Below are positions 51,089 through 54,150 of a DNA stretch of 64,000 nucleotides, piece by piece (positions within the stretch are counted from its first letter, which is position 1; each line of letters opens with the position of its first letter). The stretch spans positions 1,888,001 through 1,952,000 of the forward strand of contig OZ242296.1 of NCBI GenBank assembly GCA_965207735.1, read 5' to 3'. Made by a program: the position numbers and the translations under genes. The notes under the pieces are model-generated. The model was not told where the DNA came from. It did no database searches and saw nothing but the letters and a program-made list of their open reading frames with translations. This stretch comes from Candidatus Versatilivorator sp. (lineage in GTDB: Bacteria > Acidobacteriota > Terriglobia > Versatilivoradales > Versatilivoraceae).

Positions 51089-51506
51089 CCTTCCCGGAGG
51101 GATCACTGTGGTGAGAGCGACCTCCCCGCAAGGGGGGCAAAGGGTGTCCGGACCCCTGTCCCCCTTTGTCCTCCCCCGTGGCGCACCAGCGGCCAAAAAG
51201 GGGGGGTCGCTCTCACCACCAGCACCCCTCTCGTGCGGCGCGCCGTTGCGCCAAGCGAGGGGGAGACTCGCGAGGCGCAGCCTCGCATCGCCTCTTCGCA
51301 GCGGACGCGGGAAATCCGTTTTGTCCCGCGTCTGATGCGGCGTTTCGGGAAAGTCGCCAACCACAACGGCGAGGGGCTCCACCCCCTGAGAGAAAAGCGT
51401 TGTGGTTGTTAAAAGCATGTCACCCCTCGATGTCACCCCCCCCTTCTGAAAGGGTGACACCCATACGGCGGCATCTGCTTGACCCCCAGAGGCGGAAATC
51501 GTCGAT
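51089..51506 (+). ncRNA. Putative structured element (RNA or ssDNA), copy A
   Basis: Stem 51108-51127/51200-51219 enclosing hairpins; further stems; homologous to 53719-54150 with compensatory changes. Confidence 0.55.
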
Positions 51507-51542
51507 TATTCCAGGGTCATTGGGTGGGCCTGTTTCTTGCTC

Positions 51543-51571
51543 CGATTCATCCCCACGCCTGCGGGGAACAG
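51543..51571. CRISPR. Solitary type I-E-like CRISPR repeat (no array)
   Basis: 29-nt CGATTCATCCCCACGCCTGCGGGGAACAG resembles the I-E repeat pattern CGGTT[CT]ATCCCC.C....G.GGGGAACAC. Confidence 0.65.
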
Positions 51572-51594
51572 GACCGTGACCAGTCTTCCCGAAT

Positions 51595-51773
51595 GGCCGA
51601 AGACGGACCATCCCCGGGAGGTGATCGAGGCGGCCTTGGCGCATGTGGTTCGGAACCGTGTCGAGGCAGCCTCTGCCCGCTCCGACCTGTTCGAACGCAA
51701 GCGTGTCCTGACGGACGACTGGGCGCGATACCTGGCCCAGGGGGTCGGGAGAGGACTCCAAGTCACCTCATAG
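51595..51773 (+). pseudogene. Diverged duplicate of the integrase 3' end
   Basis: TDHPREVIEAALAHVVRNRVEAASARSDLFERKRVL..W.RYLAQG matches 50822-50971; catalytic Tyr replaced by Ser. Confidence 0.88.
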
Positions 51774-52114
51774 TCCTTCTGGCAAAGCAGCCCATAGTCC
51801 GGCGCCTTTTAGGTCCCAAAAGTCTACACGGAAATCCTCTCCACGACATTCCGGGTAACACGTCTTCGCCAGTGGTCATAGATCTGGGTGGTCCTGGCAT
51901 TGGCGTGGCCGTCCGGGTACTGCATGTCATCGAGGGGCACGTCCTGGGAGAGCAGGTCGGTGACGACTAGGACGCGGAAGCTGCGTGAGAGCAGTTGACG
52001 TAGAGGGTCTGATCGGAAGTGCTGTTGACTATTCCAAAGTCAGGGTAGTAACCTTCCCTCAGGTCCCAAGATTCAAGCAATGTACCAGCCATGTACCAAC
52101 GCTGAGGGAACACT

Positions 52115-52318
52115 GTGTACTGGTACATATATGCGACGAGTAGTGCACTCGTTGCCCACCATTTCCGCCGATGGCAACAGGGCAATAAGCTGACGGCAAA
52201 ACGTTTCTTGCTCTCACTGCCATTTGGGACGATTCCGTATGTGATTCTGTACTTGTGGTGGTCGTTCCTTGAAGGACGGGTGGGGCGGGGCTGGTTGGCA
52301 GACTGGTTCTCGTATTGA
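52115..52318 (+). CDS. Small Trp-rich membrane protein, paralog of 52456-52686 (5' end possibly disrupted)
   Basis: Ends LYLWWSFLEGRVGRGWLADWFSY; in-frame ATG 52091 is interrupted by TGA at 52103. Confidence 0.55.
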   Translation: MYWYIYATSSALVAHHFRRWQQGNKLTAKRFLLSLPFGTIPYVILYLWWSFLEGRVGRGWLADWFSY

Positions 52319-52455
52319 TTCTTGTTCCCCGTCCGGCGCATCCAGTTGGTCATGACTTCCATCAGACGCCCCCAAATCGTTCAGCTTTGCCGGGCAGGCT
52401 GCCGGAATCAGTAAATCCTAGGGAATGGGTGCGGTTGAACGTGGGGCGTGATGCT

Positions 52456-52686
52456 ATGCCATGGTATCTGGAAACCTGGCTGTGGGCAGCAACTGCCGTC
52501 CTTTTAGGTGGTGTGCTGCGACACTGTCTGTCTTCGTGGGACCATAAAGAGAGTATATCGCGGAAAAAGTTGTTCCTAGCGGGACTACGATATGCTGCCA
52601 TTTCATATCCTCTCCTTTATTTGTGGTATGCGTACCTTCAAGGATCAAGGGGTATAGGGTGGATGAGAGACTGGTTCCCCTATTGA
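52456..52686 (+). CDS. Small Trp-rich two-TM membrane protein
   Basis: 76 aa, ends LYLWYAYLQGSRGIGWMRDWFPY. Confidence 0.6.
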   Translation: MPWYLETWLWAATAVLLGGVLRHCLSSWDHKESISRKKLFLAGLRYAAISYPLLYLWYAYLQGSRGIGWMRDWFPY

Positions 52687-52758
52687 TCCATATTCCTGAT
52701 CCCAAGGCATTTATTGCTTGCAGGGCTTCAGCACTCGGGTCGCTCAAGGAACATCTAT

Positions 52759-52986
52759 ATGTCAGAGGGCTCTCTAGACCGGCTTGTAGATAACCTTTGG
52801 TATAGCATCCCAATGATGGTTCTTATCGTCGTCACGGTGTGGGGTCGAAATTGGGCGGTGCAGAAAGGGTGGGTAACTCAAGAGTGGTGTGATGACATTC
52901 TCTCGCGTGTTAGAGCTGTTCTTATAGTAGTGGCTGTCTTGGCTTTCTGCGTGTATTACCTATTGGTTCCTCATCCACCCTTGTGA
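52759..52986 (+). CDS. Small two-TM membrane protein
   Basis: 75 aa, two hydrophobic helices, AAGGA RBS. Confidence 0.55.
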   Translation: MSEGSLDRLVDNLWYSIPMMVLIVVTVWGRNWAVQKGWVTQEWCDDILSRVRAVLIVVAVLAFCVYYLLVPHPPL

Positions 52987-53008
52987 CATACAGGGATGCC
53001 TTGGAAAC

Positions 53009-53368
53009 TTGTGGGCACGAATCGGGATAGGTCCTTGGAGAATTCCCGTGACCGAATGGGACATTGGCATTCTGGTGTCGGTGAACCTGCCGATCGTTTG
53101 TTGGCTTTTCTTTTATTGGCGAAGCCGCAATAAAGACATCCAAAAAAAACATCCATCGCAGAAAACACATCGAAAGCCGTTGCTTTTCTGGTTAATCGGC
53201 ATCTGGTTAGTCGGTATCTGGTTTTGTTCCTTCATCGACTATTCCAGGTACGTCAGCGGGCCCTTGCTTGGCATGCGGTTACTCATGATCTGGTTTGTTT
53301 GCTTCCTGGTGATAAACCTGTGGCACATGCGGGAGGTGAAAAGGATTGCAGGCAAAAAGCAACACTGA
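53009..53368 (+). CDS. Small three-TM membrane protein
   Basis: Three hydrophobic segments with a basic loop and tail; start uncertain. Confidence 0.5.
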   Translation: MWARIGIGPWRIPVTEWDIGILVSVNLPIVCWLFFYWRSRNKDIQKKHPSQKTHRKPLLFWLIGIWLVGIWFCSFIDYSRYVSGPLLGMRLLMIWFVCFLVINLWHMREVKRIAGKKQH

Positions 53369-53718
53369 AGCACCTTGTTCGCCATATGTGTGAGTGTCTG
53401 CATGGGAACCCGTATTGACCCGGACTCCTGGGGAGAGTCCCCCCGCCGCCTTTGGGAGAAGCGCCGCAAGACCGGCCGGTGCGTCGAGGTGGTTGTGGTC
53501 GCTTGGGAGCAGAAGCTGCTGGACCGCGCCGGCCGGAGGCTCCAATCCTGGGCGGTCGGCGAGATGAGCGAGGTCGAAAAAGAGGCCCTCATGCTTCGCC
53601 AGGCCATGGCTGAGGCCGATTGGGACACCGTCGAAAGCCATGGCCGTTTCAATGGCATCATAGAGGGAAGATCCTCCAATGGGAGCAGGAAGACCCGGTG
53701 CCCAAGAGCTGCGGATCG

Positions 53719-54150
53719 ATCGAGGATTTCCGCCTCCGGGGGTCAAGGACGTGGCGTCGTATGAGTGGCCACCTTTCAGATGGGGGGTGGCTCACACAGG
53801 TGGCGCACCAAGTGGCTCACGCTTTTGACCACCCCAACGCTTCTCTCTCAGAGGGCGCCCCCCGTCGCCGTTGTGGTCCAGGTTGTGCCCGGAAACCCGC
53901 ATTGGAAGCGGATTGGCACGGATTCCCCGAGTCGTCTGCCGTAAAGCGTAGTGCGGCGCCGGCTTGAGTTGTCCCCGCCTCGCACGGAGCGGCGTGGCGC
54001 CGCACAGGAGGGGGAGGAAGTGGAGGGAGCGACCCCGGTTTTTTGGCCGCTGGTGCGCCACGAGCGGGTGGAAAGGTGGCCAGGCCTCTGGCCACCTTTC
54101 CGCCCCTCGTTTTCGGGGTCGCTCCCTCCACATTGATCCCGGCGGGAAGG
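53719..54150 (-). ncRNA. Putative structured element (RNA or ssDNA), copy B, inverted relative to copy A
   Basis: Perfect 18-bp stem 54020-54037/54114-54131, perfect 14-bp hairpin 54070-54101, 23-nt block identical to copy A. Confidence 0.55.

Follow-up and report, generated by a model that had tools for sequence, protein, structure and literature searches.

The closest described counterparts of the element reported here are the origins of transfer (oriT) of MOBC conjugation systems, to which it is compared below. In pMET1, oriT is followed by mobB and mobC, and two nic sites lie inside an inverted repeat (PMC2262945); a secondary table gives the nic site of ICEKp1 as GGTTG|GTCGCG (PMC7755788 Table A3), and MOBC relaxases are preceded by a coupling gene (bioRxiv 2024.01.30.577996). 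The relaxases carry a DEE motif, TraX needs a tyrosine, and no covalent intermediate has been found for the class (PMC6736028). TraX (pAD1 oriT2) has a winged helix that binds repeats 70 to 120 bp from nic (PMC12857230). Here, an element present twice (copies A and B) in a 64,000-nucleotide stretch of Candidatus Versatilivorator sp. (contig OZ242296.1, positions 1,888,001 to 1,952,000; the window) is compared with these systems. Judged from its sequence and surroundings, the element is in our assessment probably an oriT, and the reading considered most likely is that of a MOBC-type origin whose specificity factor is a separate protein and of which an oriT-only island holds two copies. An origin site had been among the options of an earlier, sequence-only reading of the window, and as a DNA site, most likely an origin of transfer, this option fits. 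The assignment draws on direct observations of position, conservation, copy number and an att-bounded island, from which we infer the steps of a mechanism.

One complete integrative and conjugative element (ICE) was identified in the genome, with the order integrase, AAA_25 primase-helicase, VirB3, VirB4, VirB9, VirB10, a likely VirB5, VirB6, VirB8, ORF330, the element, VirD4-like protein, VirB11, RepB-type primase, ArdC and P0273. ORF330 is an unannotated winged-helix protein of 315 to 340 aa, encoded on the strand opposite to that on which the element was first read, and its C terminus is encoded by the last 65 to 90 nt of the element. In complete ICEs of three phyla, the element forms the spacer between ORF330 and the VirD4 coupling gene; by their record titles, the organisms that bear these ICEs are largely sponge associated. 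The element lies upstream of the coupling-protein gene in the intact ICE of this genome, and a broken virD4 start adjoins copy A, where a blastn match to the intact ICE runs from 51521 to 50988 at 75% identity. A second VirB cluster (genome 2777874-2789477) is broken and has no ORF330 or VirD4 matches, and in L027 (12124-19994) the transfer region of the complete ICE is followed by defense-like genes (SNF2 helicase with NOV_C, PHP-ATPase, Schlafen-AlbA_2, and HicB).

Of 423 GTDB loci that have ORF330, the best 80 were surveyed for neighbors within 8 kb; VirB8 was found at 58, VirD4 at 59, VirB11 at 49, a P0273 homologue at 27 and an integrase at 25. A common core was present in 69 of 82 loci (these 80 and two from the genome itself), distributed over Acidobacteriota, Gemmatimonadota and one gammaproteobacterium. 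It consists of AGCGACC, 60 to 90 nt, GGTCGCT and then a small TCCC-N-GGGAAGG hairpin ahead of the virD4 start. Both seven-base arms were invariant in all 28 aligned loci from the three phyla, while neighboring pairs covary. When metagenomes were scanned with the motif only, 84 matches were obtained and 79 distinct loci were analyzed; ORF330 was directly upstream in 36 and VirD4 downstream in 14 of the 69 with enough flanking sequence, and at least one of ORF330, VirD4 and integrase occurred in 57 of the 79. The motif had no match in viral contigs. Core-only metagenome loci (e.g., L130, L135, L138, L151, L155, and L164) may mark other hitchhiking elements.

In pMET1, the arms of an inverted repeat upstream of mobB are GCGCGACCAACCCC ... 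GGGGTTGGTCGCGC and stand 55 nt apart. In CloDF13 the inverted repeat is CTGACCACCC ... GGGTGGTCGG, with 47 nt between the arms, and is presumably its nic region. In the element, the arms have the sequence GGGG(A)G|GTCGCT; as in MOBC oriTs, the inverted repeat is spaced and bears the G|GTCG motif on both arms, with 5 to 6 bases in common. As this sequence match is short, position and layout carry most of the weight.

An iterated profile search of the 5.26-Mb genome gave 79 hits, 46 of them full-length copies (59 to 100% identical, median 71%), where a single pair had been described from the window. Across 14 genomes of the genus, the core pattern occurred 0 to 45 times, compared with 1 to 7 times for a reversed control. 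In 35 dereplicated orphan copies, conservation was 0.986 in core columns and 0.80 elsewhere. The sequence-only reading had also linked the element to integrase-mobilized units, and indeed 40 of the 46 full copies lie inside islands bounded by left and right attachment sites (attL and attR). The element is real and not a chance resemblance, nor is it an end marker, as had been supposed: the att sites of the window island are away from both copies, the one at 49606-49617 being 1.5 kb to the left of A and the one at 58167-58178 being 4 kb to the right of B. The features of this island and its right flank are as follows.

49606-49772, plus strand: attL, with core TGCTGTTGCCGC (49606-49617), arm and promoter region; empty site in relative G009
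49770-51056, plus strand: P4-like tyrosine integrase (Pfam Arm-DNA-bind_3, Phage_int_M, Phage_integrase)
50892-51082, minus strand: broken, frameshifted 5' remnant of a VirD4-like gene, immediately downstream of copy A when read in ICE orientation (aa 20-69 matched by tblastn, E 7e-4)
51089-51506, minus strand in the ORF330/virD4 sense (first read as plus): copy A, oriT-like element, repeat class GGTGACA
51089-51102, minus strand: terminal hairpin of copy A, TCCC-N2-CGGGAAGG; insertion core of one integrase subfamily in other copies
51108-51219, unstranded: inverted repeat of copy A with spaced arms, each bearing the invariant GGTCGCT (51116-51122, minus; 51205-51211, plus), the predicted nic sites
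51417-51560, minus strand: decayed 3' end of ORF330 at copy A (E 3e-7)
51418-51459, unstranded: three class-specific GGTGACA repeats of copy A, two direct and one inverted; a variant lies in the hairpin at 51157-51163
51542-51571, plus strand: solitary repeat, followed by a duplicated integrase 3' fragment to 51794
51800-53368, unstranded: low-GC cassette of short open reading frames (ORFs) without Pfam match
53369-53808, plus strand: frameshifted 3' third of ORF330 running into copy B (E 2e-26)
53719-54150, plus strand in the ORF330 sense (first read as minus): copy B, oriT-like element, repeat class GTGGCCA/GTGAGCC
53765-53820, unstranded: four class-specific repeats of copy B; two further ones lie in the hairpin at 54075-54096
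54020-54131, unstranded: inverted repeat of copy B with spaced arms, each bearing GGTCGCT (54028-54034, minus; 54117-54123, plus), the predicted nic sites
54175-57565, minus strand: cargo genes for a 199-aa secreted-looking protein (no Pfam match), a tetratricopeptide repeat (TPR)-like protein (below cut-off), an ankyrin-repeat protein and an extracytoplasmic function (ECF) sigma factor
58043-58178, plus strand: attR, with arm region and core TGTAGTCGCCGC (58167-58178), then the right half of an Acido-Lenti-1-type repeat
58210-58255, plus strand: intact Acido-Lenti-1 repeat (Rfam RF01687), just outside the island

A and B had been described as homologous, diverged and inverted, and they align from end to end with 70% identity (E 7e-46, blastn). 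Their outer stems, common 23-mer and downstream blocks are as reported, and both copies begin shortly past a stop codon, 32 nt from that of the integrase (51056) and 24 nt from that of the 199-aa gene (54175). The 23-mer is common to A and B, but it is not invariant, being variable over the 46 genome copies and lost in distant relatives. The view that neither copy has a convincing ORF had to be revised, as the final ~65 to 90 nt of each are the opposite-strand 3' end of ORF330; the label Sel1 for the 199-aa gene had no Pfam match at E 0.01, and likeness to Sel1 was seen by eye only. One end of the element is a truncated gene of variable length. Over the 46 copies no codon periodicity was found in the body (0.82/0.82/0.80), which is consequently not a decayed gene, and none was clear in the ORF330 tail (0.82/0.80/0.77). 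The terminal hairpin of copy A would overlap the likely ribosome-binding site of virD4.

Homologues of ORF330 numbered 1,045 in one search and 1,712 cluster representatives in another, and the gene is intact at five places in the genome. Comparison with Pfam, PHROGs, NCBIfam, PDB sequences, Atlas and plasmids gave no named family (one PHROG match, E 0.09). A structure model (pLDDT 90) comprises an N-terminal winged helix and a C-terminal restriction-nuclease-like domain, the best match of the latter being the restriction endonuclease SdaI (Z 7.6, root mean square deviation 3.7, 115 aligned residues). Residues D116, E130, E132, K133, Y152 and D182 are conserved, whereas P168 is followed by V, I or L where the catalytic aspartate of a PD motif would be expected (alignment read by eye). 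In three proteins (P0151, P0159, and P0182), ORF330 homologues are fused behind an ArdC domain. Two loci (L140 and L169) have a very divergent ORF330, a GGATCC/GGATCT repeat and a different helix, yet the gene still lies between virB8 and virD4.

Each element carries three to five copies of its own 6- to 7-bp repeat just after ORF330, plus a copy in the hairpin; in one clade the repeats form inverted pairs ~23 nt apart. The repeat class is GGTGACA in A, GTGGCCA in B and in the resident integrase-ORF330 mini-elements, and GTATTCA in the resident complete ICE, whose corresponding region is 70 to 75% identical to that of A and B and has the same core. On a tree built without the helix by a quick method, close sisters were found that differ in both recognition helix and repeat (L095/L098, L103/L082, L093/L096, and L102/L060), as were distant loci that are alike in both (L098/L103, L093/L095, L074/L089, and L102/L108/L101). 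In a within-clade test, the recognition-helix window ranked first with a partial r of 0.54, compared with 0.23 for the best window away from the helix and a maximum of 0.31 in 200 permutations, and it ranked first in each of three clades (46 loci). ORF330 is considered likely to bind the element-specific repeats.

P0273 matched the Replic_Relax family (PF13814) at E 0.002, with 18.7 bits against a cut-off of 25.3, and nine of 55 homologues matched at E 0.05. Its invariant residues are P176-D177, E195, Y201 and K209, and its nearest named Atlas neighbor is "putative Replication-relaxation" (0.89, Pfam share 12%). Fold searches returned winged-helix proteins only, that domain filling the lists; P0273 had no match in plasmids, and profile comparison with ORF330 aligned only the winged-helix part (probability 23%). 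In five other genomes, 21 of 24 P0273 matches, read by eye, were on the same strand as ORF330 and within 11 kb of it. A search of these five genomes with PF13814 gave no match, and as the controls were silent too, it was uninformative. ICEs with a second gene order also retain P0273, which lies ~9 kb upstream of ORF330 in them; the idea that ICEs of the Bryobacterales/Terriglobia clade are without it was rejected, as the gene is found at that distance there. Because ORF330 has no aspartate after P168, and given the traits of P0273, the latter is favored by a modest margin as the candidate nickase and ORF330 as the specificity factor.

The window island (49606-58178) splits an Acido-Lenti-1-type repeat. 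In relative G009 the empty site joins 49618 to 58171 inside such a repeat, and most other relatives join the flanking genes directly. The function of Acido-Lenti-1 (RF01687) is listed as unknown in Rfam; 93 blastn hits of at least 35 nt were found genome wide, window copies including 58210-58255 and 63829-63874. As these repeats are split by integrase islands, they are suggested to serve here as a DNA integration target, whatever RNA role they may have. The left ends of integrase units converge on TGCTG(C/T)CGCCGC, and 29 attL and 32 attR hits were found in the genome, paired islands totaling 0.40 Mb with nesting counted more than once. A search for a tRNA target found none in the window. Integrase clades follow three target classes (11 intact proteins), and a fourth group, which the tree does not include, has TCC(C)GCAGGGA within the element's terminal hairpin as its insertion site (five attL and five attR). 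At genome positions 636464-639312, 1013947-1016795 and 2496243-2498903, nested 2.7- to 2.8-kb units of integrase and origin copy lie in the terminal hairpin of another origin; such insertions yield tandem copies ~410 nt apart. Four related islands of 2.0 to 2.4 kb (genome 1087306-1089357, 3236939-3239318, 4406556-4408607, and 5151308-5153359) have an internally deleted integrase and one origin, and are nonautonomous for both integration and transfer.

No relaxase or mating-pore gene was found in the window island by Pfam (10 ORFs) or by tblastn of ICE proteins against 49000-59000, which gave only the integrase and remnants; this fits the class of islands with an oriT and no transfer genes (iOriT). 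Neither an attR-attL circle nor an empty-site joint was seen in contigs of four runs, in which rare forms are dropped. The solitary repeat at 51542-51571 resembles a type I-E CRISPR repeat; such solitary repeats also occur at genome positions 3846290, 3860780, 3862225 and 4586585, two of them adjacent to copies of class A and joined to 3' fragments of integrase. At positions 58420-58800 of the window, between the island and the gene that follows it, three to four palindromic repeats of ~124 nt stand in tandem; most relatives have fewer of them or none. Positions 47816-48307 of the window encode a 163-aa protein in which short ITELRS units of the coiled-coil type are repeated in tandem, and in relatives copies are found again close to this locus.

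Other explanations of the element were weighed. A variant of the MOBC-type reading retains the same oriT and makes ORF330 itself the relaxase, of a new nuclease-fold class, as in TraX; the mini-elements of integrase, ORF330 and origin would then be ordinary relaxase-encoding integrative and mobilizable elements (IMEs). Favoring this are the four intact units and one interrupted integrase-ORF330-element unit that keep ORF330 and not P0273, the presence in ORF330 of both domains and the conserved residues given above, and the layout of TraX, a repeat-binding winged helix with a restriction-like domain (PMC12857230). The substitution after P168 speaks against it, as does the retention, in ICEs of two gene orders, of a second winged-helix nuclease-like gene with an invariant PD, and we consider this variant unlikely, holding a minor share of the probability given to the MOBC-type reading. 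The element could instead be a replication origin, with ORF330 as an initiator acting on iterons at the end of its own gene, hairpins that prime a RepB-type primase, and units that are minimal replicons. Iteron-like repeats with ~23-nt spacing do lie beside the gene, the winged helix is an initiator-like fold, and some ICEs have a RepB_primase gene; however, that primase is present in only six of the 80 loci, the ICE has its own AAA_25 primase-helicase elsewhere, the site sits inside the transfer operon between virB8 and virD4, its core matches the MOBC nic, and neither A nor B has an AT-rich unwinding stretch. A replication origin is accordingly rated as quite improbable.

A structured noncoding RNA, for instance a leader regulating virD4, was the other main proposal of the sequence-only reading, and it found no support, because both core arms are invariant in sequence and there is no clear strand bias in the genome copies. 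Strong folding is predicted (copy A against dinucleotide shuffles, z -7.4 as DNA and -6.9 as RNA), flanking pairs covary and the element stands just ahead of a start codon, but both strands fold about equally and ~40 copies persist without an intact downstream virD4. In stems, the counts of G-T against A-C mismatches were 32:24 for the copies of the genome, 31:20 for distant loci and 17:4 for Versatilivorator loci (nonindependent sets). The excess on the A strand, strongest in the last set and weak in the distant loci, would suit an RNA; taken together, the counts do not favor one and show a slight lean to one strand that is compatible with a single-stranded DNA step. As had been proposed as a check, both copies were scanned against Rfam, and no family reached its gathering score; at E ≤ 1 the sole match was a chance one to mir-641, far under its threshold. 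We give the RNA very little credence. The same holds for A and B as ends at which recombination would invert or excise a 2.2-kb cassette, or as a transposon resembling a miniature inverted-repeat transposable element (MITE). Inward-facing pairs do recur, and one end of the element is sharp and an integrase target, but they make up only seven of the 18 adjacent pairs within 20 kb, the other 11 being tandem or outward facing. Moreover, the true att sites are elsewhere, A and B are 70% alike and of different classes, and no inverted repeat joins the two ends of a single copy in A or in B. In contigs of the four runs no convincing joint for inversion or excision of 51.5 to 53.7 kb was found, the few A-B joints with sides of 27 to 33 bases being explained by other copies. 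A rolling-circle transposon (IS91/ISCR) and a retroelement were dropped, as no HUH or reverse-transcriptase family matched in the ORFs scanned and att-bounded islands explain the spread.

Several observations count against an oriT of MOBC type with ORF330 as its specificity factor. The overlap with known MOBC origins is confined to the 5 to 6 bases plus layout, and the repeats lie 200 to 250 nt from the nearer arm, compared with 70 to 120 bp for TraX (PMC12857230). Conservation of the core in orphan copies may have been inherited from diverse parents and not kept by selection, and 22 of the 79 motif-scan loci have none of ORF330, VirD4 and P4-like integrase within 2.5 kb. The Z score of ORF330 against SdaI is at a level that the comparison tool rates as common, and Foldseek returned nothing at E ≤ 0.001 with the ORF330 model. 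P0273 is under the Pfam cut-off for Replic_Relax, has an alanine (A197) where a third acidic residue is expected, and gave no significant alignment with pMET1 MobC (hhalign, E 0.56). When all clades were pooled, the test peaked at another window (r 0.34; helix region, 0.28), and L062 has the helix of one class and the repeats of another. Automatic motif calling was noisy, so motifs were assigned manually by a reader who could see the helix sequences, and 45 to 46 of 91 loci were used, ambiguous ones being left out; as the pairs in these tests are not independent either, the helix-repeat correlation is support, not proof. Finally, the sole complete ICE in the genome (GTATTCA) matches the class of neither A nor B.

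With an oriT of MOBC type as the preferred reading, the following mechanism is proposed. ORF330 would bind the three to five element-specific repeats through its recognition helix, and the separately encoded, Replic_Relax-like P0273 would nick the invariant inverted repeat at G|GTCGCT. The integrase would excise the island and re-integrate it at Acido-Lenti-1-type repeats. Two origins of different repeat class could allow one island to use two helper specificities, mini-elements (integrase, ORF330 and origin only) would supply specificity and borrow nickase and pore, and repeats and helix together would likely decide which gene islands hitch a ride. The window island is probably an oriT-only hitchhiker with TPR and ankyrin cargo; that A and B still work is put at even chances. 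More tentatively, a conjugation system of sponge symbionts may split the jobs of a MOBC relaxase over two winged-helix nuclease-fold proteins, a shared nickase at the invariant core and ORF330 as an address reader with a residue-to-base code for 6- to 7-bp repeats. Islands would collect several addresses, mini-elements would carry the reader without the pore, and integrases would land in dispersed repeats or in the origin, giving a network that would occupy as much as ~8% of the genome and spread TPR and ankyrin genes between phyla. As the ICE proteins gave no match at a relaxase-family cut-off in the Pfam scans run, standard mobility typing likely misses these ICEs. With an origin defined, dozens of cargo islands in each genome, eukaryote-like repeat proteins included, become candidates for conjugative spread, and the helix-repeat pairing yields direct predictions for binding in a poorly understood relaxase class.

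Literature searches, with most subscription papers and bioRxiv supplements outside their scope, returned no description of this element or ICE family. pMET1, ICEEc1 (HPI-ECOR31), ICEKp1 and CloDF13 resemble it in having a noncoding site ahead of the coupling gene with a spaced GACC...GGTCG repeat, and share a VirB-type (MPF-T) operon, ArdC and a replication-relaxation-like gene. Unlike in that group, ORF330 precedes the origin here as an extra winged-helix gene, and the candidate relaxase, which has no significant similarity to pMET1 MobC, is 5 to 10 kb away and not beside the coupling gene; beyond the core no alignable DNA was seen by eye, no dedicated comparison having been made. pAD1 oriT2 with TraX, also MOBC, likewise combines a winged-helix protein with repeats distant from a nic-like site (PMC12857230), although the repeats here comprise inverted pairs at 200 to 250 nt and one further copy within the hairpin. 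The PD-bearing nuclease and the recognition of repeats also appear to be divided between two genes here. SmpO systems are plasmids and differ in the fold of the accessory protein and in the relaxase. As in the pWBG749 oriT subtypes read by SmpO in Staphylococcus aureus, a conserved core is combined with short subtype sites read by an accessory protein, few residues switch specificity, switches are convergent, and hitchhikers carry cognate origins (PMC8136818); here, a 315-aa protein with a winged helix and a nuclease fold takes the role of the factor, and chromosomal islands take that of the hitchhikers. The streptococcal IME_oriT (Libante et al., PMC7563843) are also small integrative elements, with the oriT region of ICEs as their insertion target, but they encode their own MOBT relaxase, whereas in two 2.8-kb hairpin-targeting units here an origin copy was seen and no search aimed at a relaxase was made. 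The iOriT islands (Ares-Arroyo et al., bioRxiv 10.64898/2026.01.13.699239) share with the window island an integrase, att sites and an oriT, with no relaxase or pore. Those islands were reported from six nosocomial species, in which a chromosome has at most nine integrative elements, whereas the single genome studied here has 29 attL hits and 46 origins, often two to four origins of different class per island, and integrases that target dispersed repeats.

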